A stretch of DNA of 64,000 nt from an uncultured virus (IMG/VR IMGVR_UViG_3300028593_000005) (IMGVR_UViG_3300028593_000005); one strand, 5' to 3'. Counted from the first letter of the stretch, positions 13,449 to 55,530 are shown. The notes: generated from the letters alone by a model not told the origin. Made by a program: numbers and translations.

Positions 13449-14333
13449 ATGTCGAATAATCTTTACGACGAAAGAATACATTGTATTCCTGGTCCGTACC
13501 CGACAGATCCCATGTGGATCCCAGGTAGACCGCCATACGAGCATCCTGGTGGATGCTGTCCAGATGCACCTGTTGTAAATCCTTACAATCCTGGTGTACC
13601 TAATCCTGTTCCTACTCGTTACTTCTATCCTGTACCGCCTTGTGGTCCTTGGCCTCATCATCCTGAGAAGTTCTTCGTTCTGAAGAGACAACTCAATGAA
13701 ATACTCAAGAACATCGCTAAGGCTGATATCTATCAGGATAAGAGCGAAACAGGTACTACTATCAGAGTCGGCGGTATTGCTAAGGGTACTAAGCTCGGCG
13801 ACATCACATTCTCAGAACTTGTTGCTAAGCTTCTCTTCCCCTCTGGTGATCAGCCTGTAGACCCTGAAGAGTATGTTAAAATGGGCGAGTTGGAAGATCT
13901 TGTTAAGGCATTCCTTACTACTGTAGCAGTATCTGGTTCCTATAACGATCTTACAGACCAGCCTACTATCCCAAGTGTTGAAGGTCTCGTAACTATAGAG
14001 GCTCTTACAACAGCACTTGGTGATTATGTAGCTAAGACTGACATGGCAACATACCTGTCAGGCTATGATTATATTAAAATGGGCGAGTTGGAAGATCTTA
14101 TTAAGGCATTCCTTATGGTCGAGTTGGAAGATCTTGTTAAGGAATTCCTTGCTACTGTAGCAGTATCTGGTTCCTATGACGATCTTACAGACACGCCTAC
14201 TATCCCTAGCCTTACATGGCCAGAGGATAAACTCCACGATGTAGTAAACGGCGTGGGTGGATTCAAAGTTGGAGATAATCTTGCTGGAATGAGCATCGTT
14301 GATATCATCGAAACTCTTCTCTGTAAACCCTAA
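13449..14333 (+). CDS. Putative fibre/decoration protein with SGSY(N/D)DLTD.P repeats
   Basis: LATVAVSGSY.DLTD.PTIPS repeats are typical of phage fibre proteins; Pro/Cys/His-rich N-terminus; late promoter. Confidence 0.6.
   Translation: MSNNLYDERIHCIPGPYPTDPMWIPGRPPYEHPGGCCPDAPVVNPYNPGVPNPVPTRYFYPVPPCGPWPHHPEKFFVLKRQLNEILKNIAKADIYQDKSETGTTIRVGGIAKGTKLGDITFSELVAKLLFPSGDQPVDPEEYVKMGELEDLVKAFLTTVAVSGSYNDLTDQPTIPSVEGLVTIEALTTALGDYVAKTDMATYLSGYDYIKMGELEDLIKAFLMVELEDLVKEFLATVAVSGSYDDLTDTPTIPSLTWPEDKLHDVVNGVGGFKVGDNLAGMSIVDIIETLLCKP
13872..14206 (+). repeat. Intragenic ~100-bp direct repeat with a nested ~33-bp duplication
   Basis: 13872..13972 is near-identical to 14070..14206; GAGTTGGAAGATCTTRTTAAGG occurs three times. 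Confidence 0.85.
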
Positions 14334-25739: not shown

Positions 25740-26426
25740 TCATATCTTGAAGAAACAAACGATACAGTTGTATGTATATATCCTCTTGGTCTCCTTCTTA
25801 GTTATCTTCCACTTTGTCACTTCAAAGTTTGTCATGAAGTAACTATATCTAGGATTATCCAAGATAAGAAGATTGACTTGGTCATTCTTCACTGTTGGTA
25901 CTACACCACTGAAGAGATACATTGTATATTTGCCATCAACATTGACGTACTTTGCTCCGTCAGATGCTTTGAGGTTTACATATGTATTCCACTGTGGAGT
26001 TGCTTGGAAGTCTCTGTACGCTGATACAACTCCTTCTGGGTCATTCATGTATCTAAGTACAGTATTCACTGTTACCATTAAGTCACGATAACGAGCATCT
26101 GCTACATAGTCTGATACAGATGTCTTTCCGAATACTAACAGACCTTTACCTGGTATATAACACTCCGAGAACTTCATCATTCTCTGACTCTCTTCTACTT
26201 GTTCTAGTGATGCTAACACATCTACCAGAAAGATTTGGTCATTGAACCGATCGAACTCTGGAATGATTGCGTCTCTAGTGTAACGAATGTAGTTGTTACC
26301 TACTATAAGATACGCATACATCTCACCACTTATAATGTCCTTGTGGAAGTATAATGCGTCTCCTGCCTTACCCTTCATCAAGGCTATGACATTCTTCATA
26401 GCCTCGAGTATCTCTAATATACTCAT
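25740..26426 (-). CDS. Hypothetical protein translationally coupled to the DNA polymerase N-half
   Basis: ATGA overlap with the polymerase stop; 228 aa. Confidence 0.7.
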   Translation of the reverse strand: MSILEILEAMKNVIALMKGKAGDALYFHKDIISGEMYAYLIVGNNYIRYTRDAIIPEFDRFNDQIFLVDVLASLEQVEESQRMMKFSECYIPGKGLLVFGKTSVSDYVADARYRDLMVTVNTVLRYMNDPEGVVSAYRDFQATPQWNTYVNLKASDGAKYVNVDGKYTMYLFSGVVPTVKNDQVNLLILDNPRYSYFMTNFEVTKWKITKKETKRIYTYNCIVCFFKI

Positions 26427-28420
26427 ACCTCTACTACCTCTCTACTATAACAGTTCTCTTCTCTTGACTCTATCTTGTTGTAGAACTCTGAGAAAGTTCT
26501 GACTTCGTCACTGAACGGGAACTGCTTATGTGGATACTCAGTTCTCTCATCCATTATCTTCTGCTCCCACTCTGGAACAAATGGAGATGTCTGAGTAGTA
26601 CTGTTCGGTACCTTATAGAATAGATATCTTCCATCTGTACAATGGAGATCAAGCTTACCTCTCGGATGTACAATATCTGAGAAGTAGGTTATGACATCAT
26701 CATACATCTCTTCATATGAAGCAAGGTGGAACCATCTATGATAGAACTCAAGCCACTGATGAGACTGATAGTCCTCAAGGAACTGTCCTTCTCTCTTATA
26801 CTTGTATTCCTCTCTTGCAAATCTATTCTCGTTCTTATATACCTGAGTTGGTATAATGATACGAGCAATGATTGTGTTAGCCGCAAGATTGAGTTCTGAT
26901 GTGATAGACGGATAAAGGCTCTTATAGTCATAGTCATTCAGGTTTCTGAATACCATGATAGGCTTACCGTTTACTATCATCTTAGAGTAAGGTCCGAGCT
27001 TTGTAGGATCTGATACCCAAGCACCTGGGAACTTCGTCTTGGTGTTGTTCTTGTTAGTGTTGTTACCCATTACGAAGCCCTGTCTCCAGTATGACTTGAA
27101 GGCTCTGTTCTTCAGATATACTGTCTGACGATATATCTTACTGATACGAGTGTTGTTCAGAAGAACGTTGTTGTATGCATTACCCACATCGTTCACCTTG
27201 TTCTCGATACAGTACTGAGAGATAACGTCCATGATATTGTACAATACGAATGTCAAGTAATCCTTCTGAGGAAGATCTTCAAGCTTCTCACAGATATGAT
27301 GATAGTCAAGCTTACCGAAGCCTACTGTCATCTCAGCTATACTGTCGAGTCTGAAGTTCGGAATTGCTGAACGTCCCTTACGTCTACTAGCAAAGTGAAT
27401 TAACTGGTCAAGATATACGGTCTTACTGCTTATCTTGCAGAAGTCATTTCTCTCAGCAAACTCATTGAAGTTCTTATCATCGATGAAGTAACTTACTTCC
27501 TTATACTTAAAGTCTGGATGACACATTACCCTTTTTGGATCCATATCCAACTTCTTGCATCTCTCGATGATGTATGGGATATCGAACGCCATGTTCCATG
27601 CCAACAAGAAGTCTGGTTCAAGTTTGTTAATGACATTGAACAGAGTCTTGATTAACTCCTTCTCATCAGTATACATAACCGTCGAGAACTGAAGAGTATC
27701 TACACGATACTTCTTAGCTTTCTCTGGCCCGCCAACTGACTTTATGATGAAGTCTTTAGCTATAACTTCGAACTTACCGCTATTCAATAACTTCTCAAAC
27801 TCCAGACATAAGGGATTGTATGGATCTCTGAGAAGTAAAGTGAATACAGTCTGAGTTCTGTCATCTATGAATGTCACCGCATTGATTGGACACTCACCTG
27901 GTTCTACGAAGTCACCCTTCGCAGTTCTTGAGTCAACCTCGATATCGAGATAGCTCTTGTTTATAGGTCCGAAAGCATTCTTATAAGACTCACCAAACTG
28001 GAATCTGTAGAAGTCTTCGATGTTCATATCCGAACCCATAACTCTTACATGCTCATGAAGTCTCTGATTGTTTCTGTAGTCTCCATTCTCTGCATTGTTA
28101 TCAAAGAATGTCTCATTACCAGTAGCTTCTGCTATGCTCTTAAGAAGCTTTCTGTATGGAACGGTTATCTCGTCGCACTTCTCTTTCTCTATGAAAGCAA
28201 GATTGTAGTCTACGAATACCTCGTTCTTTATTCTATACCAAGTATACTCTGGATTTTCTATTGTCTCAATGAACTTCTCACCAGTAACATTGTCTTTGAT
28301 TACAAGATCCATTGAGTCAGGAATATCAGTGTAACTGTTCTTACTCCTGTTAGGCCTATGATAGATTGTCTGCAATAACGATAAGTCGTACTGCAATGGG
28401 TAGTTTCCTATCTGTATCAT
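26423..28420 (-). CDS. polB: Split family B DNA polymerase, N-terminal subunit (3'-5' exonuclease plus motif A)
   Basis: ExoI YLDIEVD, ExoII AWNMAFDIPYI, ExoIII YNIMDV, FPGAWV and motif A DYKSLYPSI; motifs B and C absent; AAAGGAGG before ATG 28420. Confidence 0.9.
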   Translation of the reverse strand: MIQIGNYPLQYDLSLLQTIYHRPNRSKNSYTDIPDSMDLVIKDNVTGEKFIETIENPEYTWYRIKNEVFVDYNLAFIEKEKCDEITVPYRKLLKSIAEATGNETFFDNNAENGDYRNNQRLHEHVRVMGSDMNIEDFYRFQFGESYKNAFGPINKSYLDIEVDSRTAKGDFVEPGECPINAVTFIDDRTQTVFTLLLRDPYNPLCLEFEKLLNSGKFEVIAKDFIIKSVGGPEKAKKYRVDTLQFSTVMYTDEKELIKTLFNVINKLEPDFLLAWNMAFDIPYIIERCKKLDMDPKRVMCHPDFKYKEVSYFIDDKNFNEFAERNDFCKISSKTVYLDQLIHFASRRKGRSAIPNFRLDSIAEMTVGFGKLDYHHICEKLEDLPQKDYLTFVLYNIMDVISQYCIENKVNDVGNAYNNVLLNNTRISKIYRQTVYLKNRAFKSYWRQGFVMGNNTNKNNTKTKFPGAWVSDPTKLGPYSKMIVNGKPIMVFRNLNDYDYKSLYPSITSELNLAANTIIARIIIPTQVYKNENRFAREEYKYKREGQFLEDYQSHQWLEFYHRWFHLASYEEMYDDVITYFSDIVHPRGKLDLHCTDGRYLFYKVPNSTTQTSPFVPEWEQKIMDERTEYPHKQFPFSDEVRTFSEFYNKIESREENCYSREVVEV

Positions 28421-28440
28421 TGTAAGTCCTCCTTTAATCG

Positions 28441-28484
28441 TAATCGTCCCAAACACGTACGATTACTTGATTATTTAATGGTTG
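28441..28484 (-). promoter_or_regulatory. Polymerase leader element copy 1 (AACC-N6-TAA promoter plus TAATCGT/ACGATTA hairpin)
   Basis: 43/44 identical to 55432..55475. Confidence 0.8.
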
Positions 28485-28551
28485 CTACTACTTTTAATAG
28501 CTACAAGATAACGCAATATGGTACAAGATAACACAACCATGAAATGGCACA

Positions 28552-28687
28552 AGAAGGACTGGTAGGGACGATCCCTACCAGTCTTCTAGAGAGGTTAATT
28601 GTTCTTGTACTAGGATCAGCCAAATCGCTAGTAACTAGGAGGACTATGACACCATGAAAGGAAACACCACCCGTTTTATGCTCCCTT
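28552..28687 (-). ncRNA. Candidate late small RNA
   Basis: Perfect late promoter at 28688..28699(-); no credible ORF; 12-bp hairpin at 28557..28583; contains anti-SD CAUAGUCCUCCU. Confidence 0.35.
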
Positions 28688-29722: not shown

Positions 29723-29727
29723 CAAGT

Positions 29728-29737
29728 TATATATTAT
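29728..29737 (+). promoter_or_regulatory. Putative early promoter TATATATTAT
   Basis: Heads the 29798..31748 small-gene operon; followed by a hairpin at 29745..29769. Confidence 0.5.
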
Positions 29738-29797
29738 AGAGGTACCAGGAAGTCGTTTCGGCTTCCTGGCAATCTAAAATAAAAGGAGGTACAGACA

Positions 29798-33185: not shown

Positions 33186-36100
33186 ATGACAAAGAATCTT
33201 GAAAGTGTCACTGTTGAAAAGCGTGACGGTAAGGAAGTTCCCTTCAATAGGGTGAATATCTCTGTTGCTGTTACAAAAGCAGTGAAAGCATCTCACCAAT
33301 CATTTGACCCAACCAAAGACCCCATGTATGACGCTAAGAACAACGAAGTTGTTGATGCTGTAATAGATGAGGTAGACACTTTCCTTAACCATGAACCTGG
33401 AAGGATACATGTAGAACGTATACAGGATCTTGTTGAACGGGTTCTTATCAAGAAAGGATATGCTGATACAGCCAAAGAGTATATCCTCTATCGTAAGAAG
33501 CGTGACGAGATCCGTAACACTCGTAACAAGACTGCTGAGTGTATGGAAGAGATCCTCGGCAAGAGCTCCGAAGACAGCAATCTTAAGCGTGATAACGCTA
33601 ATGTAAACGGCGATACTGCTATGGGTACTATGCTTCAGATTGGAGCTAATGTATCTAAGGAGTATTATCTTGACAATCGTATCAATCGTACAGCGACTAC
33701 AGCTCATAGAGATGGTCATATACATATACATGACCTCGACTTCTATGACCTTACTGTTACTTGCTGTCAGATCGACGCTAAGAAGATCCTCGAGGGCGGT
33801 TTCAATACTGGCCACGGTTATCTCAGAGAACCTGCTAGTATACTGTCAGCAGCTGCATTGGCTGCTATAGCTATACAGAGTGACCAGAATGACTGTCACG
33901 GCGGACAGAGCATTCCTAACCTCGACTATGGTCTTGCTAAGTATGTAGAGAAGAGTTTTGCAAAGCACTTCAAAGACAACTTCAGCAAGCTCTTCGACTT
34001 CGCATTCTCGTACTATATAGCTCCTGGAGAGGAAACACGAAAGAAGTTAGACGAGTTAATGCCAGAGATGGAGAAGTCTATACTCGATAGCCTCAACGGA
34101 CAGCTCAGTACCAAGATGGTAAAACCTACTTACAATGCTATCTATGAGATGGCTAAGAAGCTTGAGGAGAAGAACATTGTATCTAGCGATGATGTCAATG
34201 TAGTATCATATCTCGAGAAGATTATTCAGACTGCATTGGATGATTCATTAAGAGAAACAGACAAGGAAACACATCAGGCTATGGAAGCATTCGTGCACAA
34301 TCTCAATACAATGCACAGCAGATGTGGCGCACAGGTAGAGATGCCTAGTATAAGGGAAACCTTATACGGAGCTCGGGTAATATCGGTGGAGACTTACATG
34401 TATCATAAAAGCATGATTCGTGTAAGCTAATACCGAGATAACTGATGCTTTAACAAGTATCAGTATCGTAACGCGTAGTGGGTGAAACCTCAACACCGAG
34501 AGGAATATAATCCCACCAAGAGTATCCGATACAATGTCTATAGGGCATTGCTACGGGAGTTGCGCCCCGTGGTCCTAACGTAATGACGAGGGTAGAAATG
34601 TACGCTGAGCTGGTCTGAATTGACAGACGTATCGATTCTTAGTAAATCGTATGAGGGTGACCTCCAGAAGTATAGGATAAAAAGCCTATACGATAACATA
34701 ACTGACCTTTCTCTAGTGTAAATCTTGGAACCGATACTTCTCCTGCGGGAAGAATGGTTACTAAGAATCTCCTCAAGGCTATGAACGAAGGTCTTGGACA
34801 TGGAGAAACAGCTATCTTCCCGATTGTTATCTTCAAGGTAAAAGAGGGAGTCAACTACAATAAGGAAGATCCTAACTACGACCTCTTCAAGCAGGCTTGT
34901 GAAGTTACATCTCGTAGACTCTTCCCTAACTTCTCATTCATCGACGCTCCATTCAACAAGCAGTACTATGTTGAAGGTCGTCCTGAAACGGAGATAGCTT
35001 ACATGGGATCTGTTACAGGAGACCATGAAGTATACTATCGTTATAATGACAAAGAGTACAAGCATACATTCAAAAAGATGTATGAGAAGCTCTCTGCTCA
35101 TTTCAAGATTGAAACATTCGGAATCTCTAAATACATCGATGTCGACGGCGACGTTGATATCTATGATACATCCAGTGGAGGATTCGTTCCTTGTAGAAAG
35201 GTAATGGTTACTCCTAAGATGACTAACTGGGTTCGAATCAAACTTGCCAATGGAAGAATCATTACTGCTACAGATGACCATCCGCTTCCTGTACTGTCCA
35301 AGACAGAAGACAAGACATTCGTAAGAACACCAGTAGCAGATATCGAAATCGGCGATAAGATCGCTGTAGTGGGTCCTGCTAACGTTGTATTCGATTCTGA
35401 GTATTGGGATGGATCGGACTTCATGACTACACTCAACTCTTCAGAAGTCGTAGAGTACTCCGCCCTTGATATGGAGGAAGATGGATATGATGTAGAGACT
35501 GCATCAGATAGATTCGATGTCTCTGGTATTGTATCACATAACTGCCGTACAAGAGTTATCGGTAATCACTATGATCCTAATAACGAAATCACTCACGGTA
35601 GAGGTAACCTCTCATTCACCTCTATCAATCTCCCTAGACTCGCTATAGAGTCTGGTGGTTCAGAAGAGAAGTTCTTCAACGATCTCAGATACTATATGGA
35701 AGTTGCTAAGTCTCAGCTTCTTGAGAGATTTGAGATTCAGGCTAAGAGACATGTCTATAACTTCCCATTCCTTATGGGACAGGGAGTATGGATTGGCTCT
35801 GATAAACTCAAGTGGACAGATGAAGTAAGAGAGGTTATCAAGAACGGCACACTCTCTATCGGATTCATCGGTATTGCTGAAACTATGAAGTGTCTCTACG
35901 GCCACCATCATGGCGAAGGCGAGGAGTATGAACAGAAGGCTATCAATATCGTTAAGTTTATGCGTAATATAACTGACCAGATAGCCGAAGAGACTGGACT
36001 CAACTTCTCACTCCTTGCTACTCCTGCAGAAGGACTTTGCGGTAGATTCCTCAGAATCGACAGAAAGAAGTTCGGCGTTATCGAGGGAGTAACAGATAAG

Positions 36101-37323
36101 GAGTTCTATACTAACTCATTCCACATTCCTGTAAACTTCAAGATCTCTGCATTCGATAAGATCAGGCTTGAAGCTCCTTTCCATGAGCTTACTAATGCTG
36201 GTCATATATCATACATCGAATTTGATGGCGATACATCAGAGAATGTAGCTTCTATCGAAAAGGTAGTACGTTGCATGCATGACATGGGAATCGGTTACGG
36301 CGCTATCAATCACCCTGTAGATAGAGATCCTGTATGTGGATACACAGGTATCATCGGCGATACTTGCCCATGCTGTGGACGTAAGGAATCAGAAGACCAT
36401 ATCAGATTCGAGAGAATCAGACGAATAACGGGTTAACCTACACGATAAGCCCTAAAACTAACACAAACCTATCATAGATAGGCTTTCCATGATTGGACTC
36501 AGAGTATGGGTCAGAAATCAAATAATGATTATGGAGGGATCAAGAGATGGATGTAGTTACAACCTACAATTCAAACCTTGAGTTTAGAAAGATACCATCA
36601 TTACAGTTCCTATACGAGGTAAACTCTAATGGAACTATCTTTAGGAATGTCAAGTCTAAGAAGCAACTTCACATCAAACTTGACTACCATCATTCAAAAG
36701 CTGGTTACTATTGTACTTTTGTCAATATCAAGGGTCAATGTATAAGAGTCATGATACATTCTGTTGTAGCAGAGTGTTGGCTTGGACCAAGACCTGAAGG
36801 ATATGAAGTAGATCATCGAGATAGAAACAGTCATAACAATGACTATAGGAATCTCCGCTATGTAACTCATAGCGAACAGATGAAGAATAGAGTACTTGGA
36901 GATCATGTCATTGCAGCTGCTACAGCTAATTGTGCAGCTTACGTGAAAGATATCTCCATAAGATGTGTAGTGATAGATTCAAGAACTAATGACACATATC
37001 ACTTTAGATCAGCTACTCAAGCAGCTTACTTCATCGCATATGAGACTGGTAAGAGTCCAGAGCAAGTTAGAGGTAAGCTGAAACAAAGAAGAAGTCACAT
37101 ATACTTCTATGATATAGTATATGTGAACAACAAGAACTTCTGGCCAGACAGTATCTTTCGAAATGCAGAGACTAGACGTGTTGGCTCTACGGAGCAAGGA
37201 ATAGTCCACTTATACGAACAAGATGACGAGTAAGTGTATCTTGTAGGTGATGTAGTCACATGGAATGACGCAAAGAGGGCCGAAGAGAGCATGAGACGTC
37301 CTCATGACGCTTCAGGCAACTAA
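33186..37323 (+). CDS. nrdD: Anaerobic (class III) ribonucleotide reductase; exons 33186..34336, 34705..36433 and 37237..37323; contains an intein
   Basis: ATP cone (VEKRDG..PF), HIHDLD, GGQS. Splicing restores HSRCGAQV|PFSSVNLG and the glycyl-radical motif RRITG|YLVG; intein removal restores AYMG|CRT. 988 aa precursor, 810 aa mature. Confidence 0.95.
34337..34704 (+). mobile_element. Group I intron 1 in nrdD (368 nt, no ORF, IA-like with P7 extension)
   Basis: 5' exon ends in U; P1 AGGU/GCCU with U.G wobble and GAGA loop; terminal G; P4 UCGGU/ACCGA; P7 GCGUA/UACGC; removal restores frame and conserved sequence. Confidence 0.92.
35009..35542 (+). mobile_element. Mini-intein (178 aa, Ser1, no homing endonuclease) at the NrdD active-site Cys
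   Basis: SVTGD start, block B TATDDHPL, block F YDVET, terminal SHN, +1 Cys of CRTR. Confidence 0.92.
36434..37236 (+). mobile_element. Group I intron 2 in nrdD (803 nt) splitting the RITG|YL glycyl-radical motif
   Basis: P1 GGGU/GCCC; extended P10 (36436..36447 is 11/12 complementary to the exon 3 start); P3 CUAACAC/GUGUUGG; P7 GACUA/UAGUC; P8; terminal G. Confidence 0.92.
36547..37233 (+). CDS. Intron-encoded HNH homing endonuclease (NUMOD4/I-HmuI-like)
   Basis: YEVNSNGTIFRN; HSVVAECWLG...VDHRDRNSHNNDYRNLRYVT..EQM; NUMOD1-like FRSATQAA. Confidence 0.9.
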   Translation: MDVVTTYNSNLEFRKIPSLQFLYEVNSNGTIFRNVKSKKQLHIKLDYHHSKAGYYCTFVNIKGQCIRVMIHSVVAECWLGPRPEGYEVDHRDRNSHNNDYRNLRYVTHSEQMKNRVLGDHVIAAATANCAAYVKDISIRCVVIDSRTNDTYHFRSATQAAYFIAYETGKSPEQVRGKLKQRRSHIYFYDIVYVNNKNFWPDSIFRNAETRRVGSTEQGIVHLYEQDDE

Positions 37324-37805: not shown

Positions 37806-40445
37806 GTGATGCCTAAACTTACTGCCAGGGATATCAAAGAGCGTAGTAACAATCTCCGTATCATCTCGGAGACTCCCGCTAGCGTGAACATCAAGACCCT
37901 GTTCAGACACGTTAAGAGTCAATACTCTTACAACAACGCTAAGATAGTCCTTGAGAACTGGAGAGGTCTATCTAGAGATGAGTCTGTTGCTTTTCAGGAA
38001 GTTCTTGAACTATTCCAGCTGATATGTGATAATGACTCACCTTCCCACATCAGAAACGCTTCAGAGCTTATAGAGGGCAAAATACTTCACAAAGTTCGTG
38101 ATGGTAAAGCTCTTCGTCATCTAAACAACTACAAGATGGGTAAGCATAAGATAGCAAACACTAAGATCGAGAAGCAGACTCATGCTAATGCTACTGTAAC
38201 TACTCGTGACCTTGAGAATAAGGGTCACCACGTTAACACCCTTCACCCTAACCGTAAGTATAAGTATGACATGTTCAATCAGCGTAAGGATGAAGCTGTC
38301 AAGAAGAATACTCCCGAAGGAGAAGAAGGACAGGAAGAGAAGACTCCTAAGGAGAAAACGATTGAAGAGTGCTATGATAGAATGATCGAGTGTGTTCAAA
38401 AGAATCAGCAATGTGATCGTGTCATAGACAACCATGATAAACTCTCAAAGAGATTCAATCTTGATAAGATTGTCAGAGAATGTCGTAGAGAAGATGGTTC
38501 TTATAGAGACTGCATCTTTGAGTTGTGTTCGCTTATAGATTCATATGACATTGCCGTTGGTGCTAAGTATGGTATAGCACTGGAGAATATCATGTATCTG
38601 ATGAACAAGAACTGTATACCTCTTGAGAACAGCTTCATTGCTGAGGCTGTTACTGATTACTTCTTGCTTAACAATCAAGACTCAGAAGAGTTCTCTATGA
38701 ATGATCTCATTCATGATATGAAATACGTTGTAGAGAACTCTAAGTTCTACGACGATAACGACTTCGCTCCGATCTCTTATATCTTCGATGAAGACTACGA
38801 GCCAATCACCACTACAGAAGAGGCTATCGATACTATCCTTGAGTTCCATTCAGATAAGCATAAAGAGCTTATAAGAAAGGATGAGAATGGTAAGAAGATT
38901 AAGCCTACTGTGACTAAGGTGAAGTTGAATGGTGATAAGAAAAATACCATTAAGGGAGACCTTAATGCTTTCAAGATGTCTCACAACAAATCTATCCAGA
39001 CTCTGAAGAAGTGTCTCCATAGAGTCTTCTGTAACTCACCAGAGAATATCGTCAAGGAACTTCCTGATATCTTCGCTGTAGTAAGAGGAGCAGCAATCAT
39101 CGGCATGTTTGCCTTCTCACCATTCCTCGGAATTTTCGGTCTGATTACTGGCGCTTTCCTTAAGATGGATATCTCTCGTAAGCAGATGAAAGAAGTTGTT
39201 GATGCTTATGATAAAGAGATTTCTCGCTATCAAGAGAAACTTAACAAGACTAAAGATGAAAAGTCCAAACAGCGCTATAAGGAGTACATTAAGAAACTCG
39301 AAGCTGACAGAGATAAGCTTGAAGCTAGAGAGGATACTCTCTATACAGAAGAAGAACTCGAGAAGAAGAGAGATGAGCGTTACGAGAAGAGAAATAAGAA
39401 CTCTTCTTCAGATGACGACGACTTCGACTTCGGATCATGGGATGAGATGTATAAGTATCTCGATGACACTTCTATCCTGGTAGAATCTATGAACTGGGAT
39501 AAGAACGAGCTCATGAACACTATAAGACGTTCCATCAACTATGTCACTGCAGATTGCATTCCTGTACTTACAGAAGCAGTCATCCTTAACAGAGACATCT
39601 TTGATGTGAAGGAGTATGCTTCTATACTTGAATACGAGAGACATCGTCTCCGTTCTGAGAATGGCTATGGTAAGTATGCTAAGATAGATCCTATCAATCT
39701 AGCTCTTGCAGATATAGCTGCTCTTAAGGAACAGGAGGAAGACGACTCTATTCCAGATCTTGATATCGTCTCTACTAATGAGTATACCCACTATGTCCAG
39801 GAGACTGTACAGGATGTACTTGAACTTCTTGACATCAGTAGAACAGAAGCTCTTAACGAGGGTAGCCTGTCTAACAAGATCAAACTCGCTGCAGACAAAC
39901 TTGGTAAGACTGCTGTTAAACTCAAAGACAAAGATCGTAAGATCTCTAAGGATATCGACGTTACTATGGGTCACTTTGCTCAAGCTGCAGAGAGGGCTCT
40001 TACTAACGACAGAAGAGAAGCTATCATCAAGGGTTCTCTCTTACCTTCTGCTTCAAAGACAATCAAGGCTGCACTCGTTACTGGTGCTGCTTGGTTAGTA
40101 TCTCCTGCTATTGCAGTAATTGGTGTACTCGGTGCTATAGGAACTTCTAAGAAGCTCCAAAAGAAAGAGCGTCAGATAATTCTTGACGACATCGAGATAG
40201 AGCTTAAGATGTGTGATAAGTATATGCGTCTTGCTGAAGATAGGAATGACCTCAAGGCTGTAAGATCTATCATGCAGACTCAAAGGGCTCTTGAAAGACA
40301 GAGAAGTAGACTTCGCTATAACATGAAGGTTAACTGGAACGAGAAGGCTCCTACAACCGCTGGTGATAAGAGTTATGACGAAGCCGTAAACTTCGAAGAA
40401 AAGTATATCGGACTCCCTGGAGTTGTCGATATCAAAGAAACGTAA
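37806..40445 (+). CDS. Probable internal head/virion protein (879 aa) with two hydrophobic hairpin segments
   Basis: In the head module upstream of the capsid gene; AACT-N6-TAA at 37769; duplicated hydrophobic-helix plus coiled-coil unit. Confidence 0.6.
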   Translation: MMPKLTARDIKERSNNLRIISETPASVNIKTLFRHVKSQYSYNNAKIVLENWRGLSRDESVAFQEVLELFQLICDNDSPSHIRNASELIEGKILHKVRDGKALRHLNNYKMGKHKIANTKIEKQTHANATVTTRDLENKGHHVNTLHPNRKYKYDMFNQRKDEAVKKNTPEGEEGQEEKTPKEKTIEECYDRMIECVQKNQQCDRVIDNHDKLSKRFNLDKIVRECRREDGSYRDCIFELCSLIDSYDIAVGAKYGIALENIMYLMNKNCIPLENSFIAEAVTDYFLLNNQDSEEFSMNDLIHDMKYVVENSKFYDDNDFAPISYIFDEDYEPITTTEEAIDTILEFHSDKHKELIRKDENGKKIKPTVTKVKLNGDKKNTIKGDLNAFKMSHNKSIQTLKKCLHRVFCNSPENIVKELPDIFAVVRGAAIIGMFAFSPFLGIFGLITGAFLKMDISRKQMKEVVDAYDKEISRYQEKLNKTKDEKSKQRYKEYIKKLEADRDKLEAREDTLYTEEELEKKRDERYEKRNKNSSSDDDDFDFGSWDEMYKYLDDTSILVESMNWDKNELMNTIRRSINYVTADCIPVLTEAVILNRDIFDVKEYASILEYERHRLRSENGYGKYAKIDPINLALADIAALKEQEEDDSIPDLDIVSTNEYTHYVQETVQDVLELLDISRTEALNEGSLSNKIKLAADKLGKTAVKLKDKDRKISKDIDVTMGHFAQAAERALTNDRREAIIKGSLLPSASKTIKAALVTGAAWLVSPAIAVIGVLGAIGTSKKLQKKERQIILDDIEIELKMCDKYMRLAEDRNDLKAVRSIMQTQRALERQRSRLRYNMKVNWNEKAPTTAGDKSYDEAVNFEEKYIGLPGVVDIKET

Positions 40446-40458
40446 GGGAGGTTACAGT

Positions 40459-41442
40459 ATGGGCATATTTAGTTCATATAGACATCCGCTCAATGAAGCG
40501 GAAGTAGATGACGGTACTAATAAGCCACAAGCTAATCAGGATGATGAAGACTATACAGCTGGTGCAGATACTGCGGCAGATGATGAGTCTAACGATCCTG
40601 CACCCGACGATGCTGGTGGAGACGACGATGTCGACTACACTGACGGAGCTGATGAAGCAGGAGATGATGAATCCAATGATGACAACCAAACAACTGAAGA
40701 AGGCCAGGATGACCAGGACGATTCAGAAGGTGATGACGTTGACTACACTGATGGGGCTGACGATGCTGCTGACGACGAATCTAATGATACTGGTGACGAT
40801 ACTGGTGCTGATGACGAAGGGTCAGATGGAGATGTCGACTACACCGATGGTGCTGATGGCGGTGACGATTCTGAATCAGATGATGCTGATGAAACTGGCG
40901 AAGAAGGAGAAGAGTCTGAAGGCGATGAAGAGGAAACTGAAGACAACACTTACGAGGACCTCCGAAAGATAGAAGCAGAACTCTTCTCAAACCTTTCACC
41001 CGAACAGATTGATATCAAGAACAAGGAACTTAAGCAGCGCTTCATAGACATCTATGGAACGATCTCTTCAGTCATCCTTCGTATCAATGATATCCCTAAG
41101 ACTGATACCAATGTAGACATACTCCACTTTGTTACTGACAAGCTGATGGAACTCAAGGATCTTGTAGACTTCACTGTTCAGAAGTCTTTTGATACAAAGA
41201 CCTACATAGAGAACTCTATCAACTATCAGATCTGTCTCTCTACTCTTTATAGTATCTCAGACATTATAGCATCTGCTCAACTGGCTGAGGATAATCCTAC
41301 TCAGGAGGAAGAAGAGGACCAGGATGGTGTAATCGTAGGCGGTGCCGATGATTCCGAAGTAAATCCTGGTGATGAAGTAGTTGCTTATGGAGATAAGATG
41401 ATTGAATCAGCAGATTCAGGAAGATTCAACTCTTTCTTCTAA
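40459..41442 (+). CDS. Highly acidic prohead/scaffold-like protein with DVDYTDGAD repeats
   Basis: AAGGGAGG before ATG 40459; D/E-rich; immediately upstream of the capsid gene. Confidence 0.6.
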   Translation: MGIFSSYRHPLNEAEVDDGTNKPQANQDDEDYTAGADTAADDESNDPAPDDAGGDDDVDYTDGADEAGDDESNDDNQTTEEGQDDQDDSEGDDVDYTDGADDAADDESNDTGDDTGADDEGSDGDVDYTDGADGGDDSESDDADETGEEGEESEGDEEETEDNTYEDLRKIEAELFSNLSPEQIDIKNKELKQRFIDIYGTISSVILRINDIPKTDTNVDILHFVTDKLMELKDLVDFTVQKSFDTKTYIENSINYQICLSTLYSISDIIASAQLAEDNPTQEEEEDQDGVIVGGADDSEVNPGDEVVAYGDKMIESADSGRFNSFF

Positions 41443-41474
41443 GACAAAGTTGCCCGAATCGTACGATCGGACAC

Positions 41475-50423: not shown

Positions 50424-52568
50424 TTAGTTGTTTAAGTCCTCTGGCTTCTCAATGATTTCGAAGAGAGGTTTAGTCTGTACTTCACTCTCTACCTTCTCTG
50501 CCATGTAAACCTGCGGCTGAACATGAGCAAACATGTCGAGCTTACTAGGTGCTGTCTTTCTGAAGGAGATTGGTTTGTACAGTGTACGAGCAAGGTTCTC
50601 ATACTGCATGGTAACCTGAATGCTCGGATTAGTCTCAAGAGCCTGACGAAGAGTAAGTATTCTATACTCCTGATCTGGATAGTCCCAGTCTGGCTTTAGA
50701 AGTACATCATCTACAGCTCTGATCTGGTTCATGATTATGATTTCTGCATGGACGGAACGGATACCACCCATACCGCAATCGATAAGCTTATTGATGAAGT
50801 CCCTAAGAATCTCATGTCTTGTATAGTTACAAGTCTTTGTCTTGAGATTGATGATAGACATAACCTCTTTCAGATTCTTACCAAGATCGTCATTATAAAT
50901 ACCTACACCAAAGACAGGTATTCTAGACTGCTGAAGATCTGTGATAGGAATGAAGATGTCTGTCTCATCCTCATACTGTTTAGAGTTTATCAGCTTACAG
51001 AACTCATCCTGGAGATACAGACATTCATTGTTAGTACCATGAATCTCTATCACTTCTCCCTCTGGAGTTATGATCTCAAACTGAGTAATGTAATCTCTGA
51101 GTATATCGAAGTCGTCACCATCACCATCGCTATCACTCATAGATACAACTGTTTCTGTATCTACGCTGTCTCTATCGATATGAATCAACCACTTCTTACC
51201 ACCAAGAAATTCACTGTTTACATAGATATCCTCATCGTCGAACGTAAAGAACTGATCGAACTGCTCCTGAGGAGTACTCCACTCAATCTTACTAATCTTA
51301 GCCTCAAGAAGATGCTTAGCAGACAGCATAAGCTGAGTGAGAGTCTGTGAGATTAACTCTGCGGCAATCTTACCGATGTTTACGATGCGATTGCCCATGA
51401 AGAGATTTCCATAACACTTCCTACAAATGCCCTGTCCTCTGGCTGCACTTGCACAAGTGATAGGAGATCTCAGATAGATTGTCTTACCAACAAGATCATG
51501 TCTAAGAGTATTGAGACAACCAGTGTTATACTCCATTCCGTCAGGATGAAGTCTGAAGTATCTATCCTGATACATCTCGATATTCTCTTCAGTGAGAGTT
51601 ACTTCAACGAAGTTCTTGGTATGACAATCATAGTCAGGATCAACGTTGCCGAACTCATCTGTATAGAGATTCGTATCTATCTGGTTCAGACCAAGTACTC
51701 TGGCGAAAGCACCTGAATCTGCTGTGTTCTGTTTGGACAGAATCTGAGCCTGACGTCCAATACCTGCTTCAGCTACCATCCATTCAAAACGGTTAAGACC
51801 ACCTCTCATATAAGAAGCGTCTATAGAGTGTGGGAAGATTCCTCCCTCACCGTTAGGCTTGATACCAATGTTAGAGATCATCTCTCTAAACTGCTTTGGC
51901 TTTACACCTACCTTAGCCCTGAAAGCATCTGCAAGACAGTGGTCTCTTCCAATCCACTTCTTACTCTCAAGGATAAGCTCAATGATTCTATTACAATCCT
52001 TCATTGCCTCGGCGTTCATCTGATCAGCAGGAAGGTTTGAATAGTCTTTATGCATCAGCTCATCAAACTCAGGACAAGCATTAGCCATGAGAATGAAGTC
52101 CTCATGATTGATTGAGTTGTTGTAGAACAGAGCAAACTTCTCTGCGAACTTAAGAGTCTTATGGTTAGTATAGATCATCTCATTAAGTCTCTTAGGATCC
52201 ATCGTTTCTCTGTTAGGAATGATAGCGTACTTGTTGATGTAGTTTGCTATAGCCTTCTTATCTATTCCCTTCTTACAGAAGAACAGATGCCAAGGCTTAA
52301 GTGTATGTCCTGCTTCAAGAACGAAGCCCCACATACAAAGATTGACCATAAGATCTGGTAATGTGAGTCTTACACTCTTCTTATAGTCTCTGAATGTGAC
52401 TGTTACTTTAGTCTGCATTAGCGGTTGTTCGACGTTATCTGTAATCAGATTCTGCAGACCTATACGATAGTCATTAAGTTTTGTGTTGTCGAGATTTTCA
52501 GCTACGATCTCAACAGGTTGATTCTGAAGTAAGCATGTCCATACTCCATATAAATCGGTTCGTGTCAT
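50424..52568 (-). CDS. rpoC: Split multisubunit RNA polymerase beta' C-terminal subunit (likely non-virion RNAP)
   Basis: Bridge helix KQNTADSGAFAR; Zn site RSPITC..GICRKCYG; trigger loop IGKIAAELISQTLTQLMLSAKH; HAEIII..QIR; no DFDGD; early motif at 52630..52639. Confidence 0.9.
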   Translation of the reverse strand: MTRTDLYGVWTCLLQNQPVEIVAENLDNTKLNDYRIGLQNLITDNVEQPLMQTKVTVTFRDYKKSVRLTLPDLMVNLCMWGFVLEAGHTLKPWHLFFCKKGIDKKAIANYINKYAIIPNRETMDPKRLNEMIYTNHKTLKFAEKFALFYNNSINHEDFILMANACPEFDELMHKDYSNLPADQMNAEAMKDCNRIIELILESKKWIGRDHCLADAFRAKVGVKPKQFREMISNIGIKPNGEGGIFPHSIDASYMRGGLNRFEWMVAEAGIGRQAQILSKQNTADSGAFARVLGLNQIDTNLYTDEFGNVDPDYDCHTKNFVEVTLTEENIEMYQDRYFRLHPDGMEYNTGCLNTLRHDLVGKTIYLRSPITCASAARGQGICRKCYGNLFMGNRIVNIGKIAAELISQTLTQLMLSAKHLLEAKISKIEWSTPQEQFDQFFTFDDEDIYVNSEFLGGKKWLIHIDRDSVDTETVVSMSDSDGDGDDFDILRDYITQFEIITPEGEVIEIHGTNNECLYLQDEFCKLINSKQYEDETDIFIPITDLQQSRIPVFGVGIYNDDLGKNLKEVMSIINLKTKTCNYTRHEILRDFINKLIDCGMGGIRSVHAEIIIMNQIRAVDDVLLKPDWDYPDQEYRILTLRQALETNPSIQVTMQYENLARTLYKPISFRKTAPSKLDMFAHVQPQVYMAEKVESEVQTKPLFEIIEKPEDLNN

Positions 52569-52629
52569 TGTCCTCTACCTCCTTAGTATTGGATAGTTTC
52601 AGTATAGGTAAACCTCTACTGTCGCTCCT

Positions 52630-52639
52630 ATAATATACA
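52630..52639 (-). promoter_or_regulatory. Putative early promoter TGTATATTAT
   Basis: Upstream of the beta'C-helicase operon. Confidence 0.6.
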
Positions 52640-52656
52640 ACGAAAGGCATGATTGA

Positions 52657-53133: not shown

Positions 53134-53225
53134 GTTTGGATTCCTCCTTGTTTAGTATATCTGAGTGGTGTAATTGCCACTACTGATTATATAATAGTTC
53201 TGTCAGAACGACTAAAAAGAAGGAA

Positions 53226-53256: not shown

Positions 53257-55413
53257 TTACAGGGATACAATGTTTGTGAAGTTCACATTCTTCTTCTCTC
53301 GTCTGTCTATGCCGAGAGCTTCTACTGGGAATGTAGCAATGTTATCATTGATAACCTGAGTGTAGTTGATGAATGGCTTAACCCACTCTGGTACATCTTC
53401 TTCAGAAAGTATAGCAATATTACCACACTCTCCCTTGAAGTCCTTTGATGCGAGCATCTTTACTGCTCTTTCGTATACATCTGGGAATGTGTCCTTGATC
53501 TGGTCGATATTCTTTTCTGTCATATCTGTCTTGATGATCAGAACAGTGTTACGTGTAGTAAGATCAATGATTGGCTCATTGTCTCTTCTGAGCAGATTAT
53601 ACGCTACAGCCGCCTTGATGGTATACTGCCCCATAGGATCTGCATAACCAGACGATGCCTTTATACGCTGTGGCTTAAAGTAACTCTTATCACCTGCCAT
53701 GAGAGAGTCGTAGATCATCTTCTCAAGAGCAGCGAGCTGTTTGATGATATCTATCTGAGAAATATTCTCTGCATTGAGCACGAAGTACCATAGGATTTCT
53801 TCAATTCTTCTTGCTGTCTTCTCAGGTATACCAACCTTACGGATAGGCATACCTTTAACATCAAGAGCTTCCTCAAGAGGAATGAATGCATTCTCCTGAC
53901 GTTCCTGATAACAACAGTAGTTCTTCTTCACCATTGTAACGAGAGCCTGCTTAAGCTGGAACTCATTCTTGAGTATGAAGAATGACTTACGTATCTTACC
54001 GTCTGCTGTTTTGATAGCATTAGAGTTAGTAGAATACCTTGTCATATAATCAATCGACAAACGTCCCATGATATGAGCAAGTACATTGATGAGAGAACAA
54101 CGATATCCTGCTGTAGGACCTACAGAGTTATCATCACTCAGAGTCTGCTGAAGATCAATAACTTCATCCTTGAAGAAGTCGTAGTCATATGAATGAACGT
54201 CTGCTCTCCATACCTTACCCTCATTGTTCTGCTCGATTTCCTTAATCCTCATCGGGATCTTGTATGTCTTATCAAGAAGATAACGATACCATCCATCGAA
54301 GCTAATGAAGCAAGAGTCAGTATCTGTAAGGATAGATACAGAACGAACCATGTTCTCTGCTCTATCGAGACGATCCATATACTGATGTCCATAGTATACA
54401 TACTCTTTAACGAGTTCATATACTTCATCAAGAGCTGCTTTGATCTGATCTGCAAGATGACTAGCTTCTTCTTCAGTCATCGGGTTATCAGTATCCTTAA
54501 GAGCATCATAGATGTCCTTAGCATTAGGAGTCTTGTTCGGATCCATGAAGTGTATCGGAAGCAAACTGAGGAAGTATACAACCTTATCCATAACGTACTT
54601 ATTGTCGAAGAAGTAGAAGAGGTTATTCTTGAAGAAGATACGGTTAAGATCTTCCTGGTCAAGCTGATTGATGATATCCCATACAATCATCAGATCCTTC
54701 TCTGAAGGTCTGTAGTAGAAACCACATGTACAGATAAGCTGACAGAATACATCGTATGCTGATACTGGCATATCAATGACATCATAGTCATTATACTTAC
54801 GAGTAGGTCTCTCACGACGAACGTTATTGATGAACTGTATGATCTCATTGAGTGAGCCGAACTTAACGTTATTGTTGAGTGTAGCTTCAAACAAGAGAAG
54901 TGCTGTAGCAATACAGTTCTGACCCTGCATCGTGATAGACGAAGCAACGTTAACGTTGTAGAAGATAGATGTATGATTACCACTAGCTCCATAGATAGCA
55001 TTTGCAGATACTTTCTCTGAAAGCTGAAGAAGATTATACTTCTCATACATCTCTGATCCCTTAGGATACTTAAGCATCATATCCTTATACTCAGCTCTCT
55101 TAGTCAGGAACTCCTGAATGAGGTCTACGTATGGGTTAGGACAAGTATCATGCTTCTTAAAGAGAACACCAGATACAGTTACTATCGGTTCTCGTTCTAT
55201 GATATATTTCAGGACGTTATACAATGTAGTGTCCTGCTGATTGTGTGTGTAATTGTTATCCAGTTTCACTGGTGTATCAGAAAATCTTTTAGCTATAGAG
55301 TAATCTATAGCTGCATCGATATCCGCATCGAACAGTCTTGGGAATGACAGTCTCAATGCTTCTTTCATTTCGGTCTTATAGATGGTAAGACCTTTGTTTG
55401 ATATAGGTATCAT
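53257..55413 (-). CDS. polB: Split family B DNA polymerase, C-terminal subunit (motifs B and C)
   Basis: R..YK..M, Q..EKVSANAIYG (motif B), TDTDS (motif C), KKNY, VKG. Confidence 0.9.
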   Translation of the reverse strand: MIPISNKGLTIYKTEMKEALRLSFPRLFDADIDAAIDYSIAKRFSDTPVKLDNNYTHNQQDTTLYNVLKYIIEREPIVTVSGVLFKKHDTCPNPYVDLIQEFLTKRAEYKDMMLKYPKGSEMYEKYNLLQLSEKVSANAIYGASGNHTSIFYNVNVASSITMQGQNCIATALLLFEATLNNNVKFGSLNEIIQFINNVRRERPTRKYNDYDVIDMPVSAYDVFCQLICTCGFYYRPSEKDLMIVWDIINQLDQEDLNRIFFKNNLFYFFDNKYVMDKVVYFLSLLPIHFMDPNKTPNAKDIYDALKDTDNPMTEEEASHLADQIKAALDEVYELVKEYVYYGHQYMDRLDRAENMVRSVSILTDTDSCFISFDGWYRYLLDKTYKIPMRIKEIEQNNEGKVWRADVHSYDYDFFKDEVIDLQQTLSDDNSVGPTAGYRCSLINVLAHIMGRLSIDYMTRYSTNSNAIKTADGKIRKSFFILKNEFQLKQALVTMVKKNYCCYQERQENAFIPLEEALDVKGMPIRKVGIPEKTARRIEEILWYFVLNAENISQIDIIKQLAALEKMIYDSLMAGDKSYFKPQRIKASSGYADPMGQYTIKAAVAYNLLRRDNEPIIDLTTRNTVLIIKTDMTEKNIDQIKDTFPDVYERAVKMLASKDFKGECGNIAILSEEDVPEWVKPFINYTQVINDNIATFPVEALGIDRREKKNVNFTNIVSL

Positions 55414-55431
55414 AGTTTTCCTCCTTGTTCA

Positions 55432-55475
55432 TAATCGTCCCAAACACGTACGATTATTTGATTATTTAATGGTTG
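55432..55475 (-). promoter_or_regulatory. Polymerase leader element copy 2
   Basis: 43/44 identical to 28441..28484; an additional early motif lies at 55487..55496. Confidence 0.8.
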
Positions 55476-55518: not shown

Positions 55519-55530
55519 AACATCTTAGTA
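55519..55530 (+). promoter_or_regulatory. Late promoter AACA-N6-TA
   Basis: AACAtcttagTAA. Confidence 0.65.

Follow-up and report, generated by a model that had tools for sequence, protein, structure and literature searches.

Among jumbo phages with RNA polymerases of their own, a family-B DNA polymerase divided into two proteins is a core trait, and how two unlinked polymerase genes stay in step has apparently not been addressed before in the portions of the published literature available to us. This question is raised by a 64,000-nt stretch of DNA from an uncultured virus (IMG/VR IMGVR_UViG_3300028593_000005), referred to below in its entirety as the window, in which the genes for the N half and the C half of such a polymerase are each preceded by nearly the same 44-nt sequence, at positions 28441-28484 and 55432-55475. 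We examined this element in the window, in close uncultured relatives, and across a wider family of polymerase loci. The element is very probably a functional shared cis-regulatory site, acting at some level, and we assign a probability of roughly one half to the more specific reading that it is an RNA-level translational operator co-regulating the two polymerase halves.

A repeat search of the 64-kb window identified positions 28438-28484 and 55429-55475 as a 47-nt direct repeat with 96% identity. Within the 44-nt segments, 43 nucleotides match, the sole mismatch being a G at 28466 against an A at 55457 (coding strand), and outside the repeat the flanks of the two copies cannot be aligned except over the Shine-Dalgarno (SD) sequence and the first codons. 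Both copies are located on the minus strand directly 5' of long open reading frames (ORFs). The first of these, polN (26423..28420, minus strand), encodes a protein of 665 amino acids (aa) comprising the exonuclease domain and the beginning of the polymerase domain, and its product matched Pfam PF03104 at 2.2e-9 and PHROG 3011 at 3.3e-51. The second, polC (53257..55413, minus strand), encodes the remainder of the polymerase domain in 718 aa, with matches to Pfam PF20286 (2.6e-29) and PF00136 (9.9e-13) and to PHROG 2927 (2.1e-56). A first-pass annotation had described 43/44 identity with unrelated flanks, a polymerase split over 27 kb, and a promoter-like box, hairpin, and adjoining SD common to both leaders. 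The repeat search and flank alignment bear out the first of these points, the N-half and C-half ORFs with their domain matches the second, and a reading of both copies the third. When the 25-nt hairpin core was searched for with up to three mismatches, two matches were obtained in the window and none in 100 dinucleotide-preserving shuffles. A DNA search of the GenBank phage collection returned no match, and a scan of the whole window with Rfam 15 at the gathering threshold likewise gave none.

The first 13 nt of the repeat, AACCATTAAATAA, form a promoter-like box of the AAC-N7-TA class, assigned by sequence reading and motif class to 28471..28483 in the polN leader and 55462..55474 in the polC leader (minus strand in both cases). 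This box is one copy of a genome-wide motif, AAC-N7-TA[AG], for which the window has 17 occurrences followed by an SD and a start codon; in 100 first-order random sequences the number averaged 2.2 and never exceeded 7. Close uncultured IMG/VR relatives with 94-99% aa identity, termed clade A here, consist of the contigs G002 (229 kb), G003 (232 kb), and G004 (77 kb) and the fragment L008; G002, which aligns in blocks over most of the window at approximately 87-98% nucleotide identity, was used as a stand-in for the window's whole genome. In G002, an SD and a start codon follow 57 of the 155 AAC.{7}TAA sites, and the motif most often lies 35-44 nt from the ATG in four related whole genomes. According to the part of the source available to us (PMC7598289), the late promoter consensus of the non-virion RNA polymerase (nvRNAP) of Bacillus phage AR9 is 5'-A(-11)ACA-(6N)-T-A/G(+1). 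The box shares the spacing and the AAC and TA anchors of that promoter, and the motif also recurs across the genome at a fixed short distance 5' of an SD. The two differ at position -8, as the polymerase copies read AACC-ATTAAA-T-A and have a C where the AR9 consensus has an A; elsewhere in this genome the position is occupied by A, C, or T, for a genome-wide consensus of AAC[A/C/T]-N6-TA. A further likeness to AR9-type transcription is that RNA polymerase beta-subunit PHROG families match window positions 50424-52568 and several G002 genes. Promoters of this type are also characterized by recognition of a template strand containing uracil. Under the AR9 late-promoter numbering, the transcription start sites (TSSs) are predicted at A 28472 for polN and A 55463 for polC; because the box belongs to a genome-wide motif of the AR9 late-promoter type, the predicted TSS falls 5' of the hairpin.

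The remainder of the repeat is dominated by an inverted repeat, TAATCGT-N11-ACGATTA, that can be drawn as a 25-nt hairpin with a 7-bp stem and an 11-nt loop. In the polN leader the hairpin occupies 28441..28465 on the minus strand, with the 5' arm TAATCGT at 28465-28459, the loop ACGTGTTTGGG at 28458-28448, and the 3' arm ACGATTA at 28447-28441. The identical polC hairpin lies at 55432..55456 on the same strand (arms at 55456-55450 and 55438-55432, loop at 55449-55439), and the loop reads ACGUGUUUGGG as RNA in both leaders. Five nucleotides, CGAUUAAAGG in polN and UGAACAAGG in polC, separate the 3' end of the hairpin from the SD. By sequence reading, the polN initiation region (28418..28435, minus strand) consists of the SD AAAGGAGG at 28435-28428 and the ATG at 28420-28418, and that of polC (55411..55426, minus strand) of AAGGAGG at 55426-55420 and the ATG at 55413-55411; the distance from hairpin end to AUG is 20 nt for polN and 18 nt for polC. 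Counted from the predicted start, the hairpin would occupy mRNA positions +8 to +32. The two polymerase leaders measure 64 and 66 nt between the start of the motif and the ATG, compared to 35-46 nt for most leaders behind the same promoter, and because the inverted repeat accounts for the extra length, we read the hairpin as an insert into a generic promoter leader. In isolation it has a folding energy of -9.4 kcal/mol (z-score of -2.8), and 2 of 200 shuffles fold equally well. The element does not fit a rho-independent terminator, in which a run of U follows a GC-rich stem: after the hairpin come the 5-nt spacer and the SD, and its place is 5' of the gene.

To judge the specificity of the element, we turn to the complete genomes G002 and G003. 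Allowing up to two mismatches, TAATCGT-N11-ACGATTA was found at two exact sites in each genome, both of them at the polymerase leaders, and at one additional two-mismatch site per genome within a coding region. The intact hairpin in these genomes therefore marks the polymerase leaders only, and the element was not encountered before many unrelated genes, an outcome that the first-pass annotation had named as evidence against its proposal. In an alignment of the polN leaders of the window, G002, G003, and G004, promoter and hairpin are invariant save for a 1-nt insertion in the spacer, while the approximately 30 nt upstream differ heavily or have been replaced and the 5 nt between hairpin and SD occur in three versions. 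The polC intergenic region is 97% conserved throughout clade A and hence offers no constraint contrast. Judged from these alignments, the hairpin element is under purifying selection. The loop had been described as fully conserved, which did not hold: in the polC copy of G004, the loop has undergone a G>A change and the 3' arm an A>G change that turns a U-A pair into U.G. A metagenome scan anchored on the promoter and SD, with the hairpin left free, recovered only contigs of two known relatives and no new variants. The broader idea that hairpin leaders are a mark of replication genes in G002 was rejected, since the 16 structured leaders include those of virion genes and of genes of unknown function.

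Outside clade A, the two polymerase halves have their nearest cultured relatives in the Bacillus phages AR9 and PBS1, at 31% and 27% aa identity, and a large uncultured IMG/VR family at 34-60% aa identity provided 77 polN loci and 80 polC loci. In the nearest outgroup, G014 (approximately 60% aa identity), the two polymerase leaders share a homologous tract of approximately 60 nt, consisting of an AAC-type promoter, the hairpin GTRCC-TRATTA-GGYAC, and then GTTTAGGAATTAGGAGG. This hairpin differs from that of the window, and a third copy of it is located approximately 85 nt 5' of a DnaB-like helicase gene. Both polymerase leaders of a clade at 55% identity (clade B/B') also combine a promoter, a hairpin, and an SD, with yet other sequences; examples of the hairpin are GAACG-TATTA-CGTTC, GTACG-CAATA-CGTAC, and AGATTACG-TATTA-CGTAGTCT. 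Related hairpins or palindromes containing GTAC are found in this clade in the leaders of SbcC-like, UvsX-like, and dCTP deaminase genes. The loops of relatives include UAUUA, UAAUA, CAAUA, and UAAUUA. Each polymerase leader of G009 holds one copy of the 11-mer ACGTATTACGT, and these are the only two in 214 kb. With the same or related hairpins at DnaB-like, UvsX-like, SbcC-like, and dCTP deaminase genes, a regulon of replication genes is a better fit than autoregulation of the polymerase in the strict sense.

Two features of these relatives bear on whether the element is read as a folded strand. The polC leaders of clade B have conserved arms, AGATTAC and GTAATCT, around loops of 5 to 16 nt, and such variation in length suits a folded strand better than a duplex site with fixed spacing. 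In addition, covariation was assessed over 8 bp in 13 distinct leaders of clades B and B', in which 86.5% of the cells are paired, versus 22-36% when the partners are slid. Four pairs of this helix change on both sides, and none of 500 shuffles attained the covariation score; the 13 leaders are related to one another and the structure was derived from those same sequences. Loss of stem pairing in relatives, which the first-pass annotation had likewise named as evidence against its proposal, was not seen in the leaders of clades B and B', where compensatory changes keep the pairing.

The resemblance between the two leaders was also compared with that of other leader pairs. When all pairs of motif-bearing leaders within a genome were ranked by similarity of their 5' untranslated regions, the polymerase pair ranked 2nd of 2556 pairs in G002, 2nd of 1830 in G009, 2nd of 2278 in G011, and 85th of 2145 in G010, and the pairs ranked at the top are accounted for by duplication or by embedded early-type motifs. 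When the score of each lineage's own pair was set against those of mismatched pairs, 8 of 28 distinct lineages with both leaders reached the 95th percentile, one of these with no margin, and mutual resemblance of the polymerase leaders was recognized in about five clades. The word TACGT is present in 25 of 107 distinct polymerase leaders, which are not mutually independent, versus 19 of 700 leaders of four genomes, and words containing ACGT are enriched in polymerase leaders across the family.

On the basis of these comparisons, we propose that the 44-nt repeat would be a two-part control cassette placed 5' of each half of the split polymerase. Its first part, the 13-nt box, would be an ordinary copy of the AR9-type nvRNAP promoter, with starts predicted at 28472 and 55463. 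The second part, the 25-nt inverted repeat, would be transcribed as +8 to +32 and could fold into the 7-bp stem and 11-nt loop. One trans-acting factor would then recognize the same element on both messages and set the expression of both subunits in parallel, most likely through ribosome access at the adjoining SD, that is, by translational repression. What we infer in this scheme is where transcription starts, that the hairpin folds in vivo, that a factor exists and which it is, and that it acts on RNA as opposed to DNA. The RNA operator is favored because the element has a constant position between the predicted start and the SD, because pairing is kept through double changes, because loop lengths range from 5 to 16 nt, and because the gene 43 protein (gp43) of phage T4 offers a precedent.

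A number of observations weigh against the RNA operator. Similarity between the two polymerase leaders is patchy across the family, as in 20 of the 28 lineages they are not alike. No shared hairpin was seen in the two polymerase leaders of AR9, in which both polymerase halves are annotated with early promoters, in contrast to the late-type motif found here. Folding of the whole leaders gave z-scores of -1.7 and -1.3, which are not significant and indicate modest stability. Leader hairpins are also not rare, as 12-18 of the 66-74 motif-bearing leaders per related genome fold at -5 kcal/mol or below; because leader stems are common in these genomes, the distinctive feature is the identity of the two elements and not the presence of a stem. 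Among 184 called G002 proteins, no PHROG match is described as a translational repressor. The count of G.U against A.C mismatches in the A7 alignment is 3 versus 1, too few to separate the strands. Four RNA-library runs from activated sludge or wastewater contain the locus in the form of contigs, from which neither start, strand, nor expression level is readable; one such contig spans the whole stretch and another reaches approximately 105 nt 5' of the predicted start. Finally, a stem-less inverted third copy of the element in G002 and G003 points to recognition of duplex DNA. Taken as a whole, the interpretation put forward in the first-pass annotation stands in part: the shared box, hairpin, and SD, the specificity of the hairpin, its constraint, and the kept pairing speak for it, and the claim of a fully conserved loop falls away. 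As a separate observation made by eye, the AR9 (KU878088.1) g132 and g152 leaders (L037 1402-1506 and L038 1078-1158) appear to have in common an ATTGAT-AATA-TTG-GGAGG-like stretch just before the start.

The third copy also bears on a serious rival, a DNA-level operator, in which the inverted repeat or its CGTACG core would be a duplex site for a phage transcription regulator that, bound at +8 to +32, blocks the phage RNA polymerase, the same factor also acting near other promoters. The 13-mer CGTACGTGTTTGG occurs exactly three times in each of G002 and G003. At the third site (G002 114958-114982) the element is 20/25 identical, with all 13 nt of the core and the loop sequence kept and three of the seven stem pairs broken. 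The copy runs in the opposite orientation and, at about -35 to -11, reaches into the upstream edge of an AAC promoter that belongs to an SbcC-like gene. That gene encodes an N-terminal Walker A ATPase motif (identified by eye), and its downstream part matches the SbcC family. The third copy is also present in G003 (149877-149889), and the similarity between G002 and G003 breaks down immediately past it, so that the copy ends where conservation ends. CGTACG occurs three times in the window, always in intergenic DNA, namely in the two hairpins and at 41460-41465; the last of these sites is embedded in an imperfect palindrome, CCGAATCGTACGATCGG, 9 nt 5' of an AAC-N7-TA motif and approximately 100 nt before the major head gene. 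In G002, four of seven CGTACG sites fall in the 15% of the DNA without a called gene. Further points in the same direction are the 11-mer ACGTATTACGT directly 5' of an AAC promoter in G010, the 5-N5/6-5 palindrome geometry of the G014 and clade B elements, and the L064 polN element, which is closer to that of the window when inverted (loop 6/8, by eye).

Such a site would resemble the operators of XRE/Cro-type helix-turn-helix (HTH) repressors in being an inverted repeat with a palindromic CGTACG core, copies of which adjoin promoters and face either way; near its primase gene, G002 has a gene for a 94-aa XRE-type HTH protein. The inverted stem-less copy, the palindromic core, the promoter-adjacent sites, and this XRE-type gene are what make the duplex operator a serious rival. 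It differs from known XRE/Cro-type operators in that the half-site spacing is unusual in the window's clade, at 18 bp from center to center and thus not whole helical turns, and is variable in relatives, with arms 5 to 16 nt apart in the clade B polC leaders; moreover, the polymerase copies are always in the leader by the SD, between this and the predicted TSS in every clade examined. On the sense strand, several departures from stem pairing are G.U, though not in a significant number. Weighing both sides, we consider control at the DNA level possible and rather less probable than the RNA operator.

A narrower version of the RNA operator is strict autogenous control, in which the PolB heterodimer itself would bind both leader hairpins. 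The precedent is the gene 43 operator: in the available part of PMC3014915, T4 gp43 is described as binding a hairpin and the ribosome-binding site (RBS) region of its own mRNA, resulting in autogenous translational repression, and RB69 operator RNA as cross-linking to the palm domain of gp43. As in T4 and RB69, a small hairpin is found here by the RBS in the 5' leader of a family-B polymerase mRNA, with transcription inferred from the promoter motif in the present case. The systems differ in that two unlinked genes here have the same element, and that relatives carry it at non-polymerase genes as well. They also differ in the RNA itself, since the gene 43 operator is reported in the accessible text as a hairpin of 16-18 bases with a UAAC loop and the element described here has 7 bp and the 11-nt loop ACGUGUUUGGG, which lacks the gp43-type -UAAC- (reference PMC3014915, consulted in part) and is unrelated to the gp43 operator loop. 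Restriction of the intact hairpin to the two polymerase leaders in the window's clade would fit autogenous control, as would the position of the split in phiKZ, which the portion of the preprint at hand places within the palm domain (PMC13648687), so that both halves could be needed to bind the RNA. Strict autogenous control is weakened by the hairpins, the same or related, that relatives carry at DnaB-like helicase, UvsX-like, SbcC-like, and dCTP deaminase genes, and we regard the heterodimer as a rather unlikely reader of the element.

A factor serving several genes has its own parallel in the RegA regulon of T4, where, according to the excerpts consulted, one repressor acts on about 30 early and middle mRNAs, many of them for replication proteins. 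One factor could similarly coordinate several replication-gene messages at their translation initiation regions here. RegA sites are described in those excerpts as unstructured, AU-rich, and overlapping or immediately 5' of the AUG, unlike the GC-containing hairpins 5' of the SD in the present family. In the parts of the literature on split and jumbo-phage DNA polymerases available to us, including the phiKZ preprint (PMC13648687), we found no description of shared leaders for split polymerases, and none is given in the portions consulted of PMC7598289 and PMC3014915; this agrees with the remark in the first-pass annotation that no earlier description was known.

The hairpin could instead be a passive structural element without a dedicated factor, stabilizing the 5' end of the mRNA or tuning ribosome loading equally for both genes. 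It begins only 8 nt from the predicted 5' end, and hairpins are fairly common in leaders behind this promoter class, for example in those of the DnaB-like and UvsX-like genes and of a 156-aa gene near polC. A passive stem would have no need for an 11-nt loop that is identical in two genes and across four lineages, and it leaves unexplained both the stem-less copy with preserved loop sequence and the occurrence of the same G014 hairpin at three replisome genes, which makes this explanation improbable. Least probable by far is that the identity is a functionless relic of recent duplication or gene conversion of a promoter cassette: duplication or a strong consensus promoter has left other G002 leader pairs with long identical tracts, and the similarity of the two leaders is patchy across the family, but the element is invariant while its flanks diverged or were replaced, several clades repeat the arrangement with sequences of their own, and the stems stay paired through double changes.

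Several features surround the two leaders. A 228-aa ORF (25740..26426, minus strand), whose start overlaps the polN stop by 4 nt, is probably on the polN transcript; its product matched nothing in Pfam or PHROG, gave no usable hit in the Atlas, and was not matched to AR9 g131 by BLASTP. Just 5' of the polN promoter is a tandem repeat of GTTATCTTGTA (coding strand; window 28502-28532), and the spacer between polN and the divergent gene contains a GC-rich hairpin (GGTAGGGACGATCCCTACC; window 28561-28579) that is kept in all four genomes. The cumulative GC-skew minimum of G002 lies approximately 1.2 kb from the polN leader, and the idea of a replication origin was given no weight because the skew is of small amplitude and tracks the orientation of the genes. 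In the leader of the 156-aa gene 3' of polC, a hairpin, AGTGG-CAATTACA-CCACT, comes after an AAC-type promoter (window 53164-53199, minus strand); its sequence is unrelated to that of the polymerase hairpin. Divergent from polC is a giant ORF (55555-64000, plus strand) that runs off the window; it encodes more than 2,814 aa in the window and 4,415 aa in G002, an AAC-type promoter of its own lies at 55519, and it has no counterpart among the PHROG families. A subset of genes, an RNA polymerase beta-like subunit gene among them, is preceded by an AT-rich motif, TTATATATTATAGAG, or a variant of it (window 29727-29741, plus strand, and 52626-52640, minus strand). This motif resembles early promoters and is probably the class used by the virion RNA polymerase; toward its 3' end it is similar to the late-type motif in reverse complement.

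Among relatives, the polymerase halves themselves show further interruptions. The G014 polN (L242) contains an in-frame stop and a gap of approximately 360 nt, the polC genes of G007 and G008 (L030, L035) have an insertion of approximately 1.5 kb between their parts, and the G006 polC (L032/L034) has a TAA inside the gene; these may be introns, inteins, or more splits. The window also carries a multisubunit RNA polymerase beta-like gene, the major head gene, virion genes, and a split gene for NrdD, the anaerobic ribonucleotide reductase. The latter is present as two ORFs (33186-34430 and 34754-36436) with a downstream HNH endonuclease ORF (36547-37233), and in G002 an insertion of approximately 870 nt between the NrdD parts holds an additional endonuclease ORF (PHROG 4645), an arrangement that suggests an intron or a presence/absence polymorphism of a homing endonuclease. 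Tandem repeats were noted inside two ORFs, at 13869-14209 (95-nt and 49-nt units; ORF 13449-14333) and at 40540-40884 (acidic, 57-nt units; ORF 40423-41442). In G002, the genes at 118045-120651 and 152074-153189 share at least 126 identical nt over the leader and first codons, and this pair is a recent segmental duplication of a gene 5' end.

If the element were only a promoter and a passive stem, the result would be ordinary annotation. It would otherwise offer an example of a regulatory element that evolves in concert at two loci. As a short defined element with a predicted promoter and start and with natural variants, it provides a handle on regulation in an uncultured AR9-like lineage. More broadly, and with considerable reservation, AR9-like jumbo phages might possess a co-evolving operator system in which a single factor, possibly the N and C polymerase halves together, reads identical leader hairpins on the two subunit mRNAs, and in some lineages on helicase and recombination mRNAs too, and would thereby keep the parts of the replisome in proportion, as a form of trans-coordinated translational control of a split enzyme.
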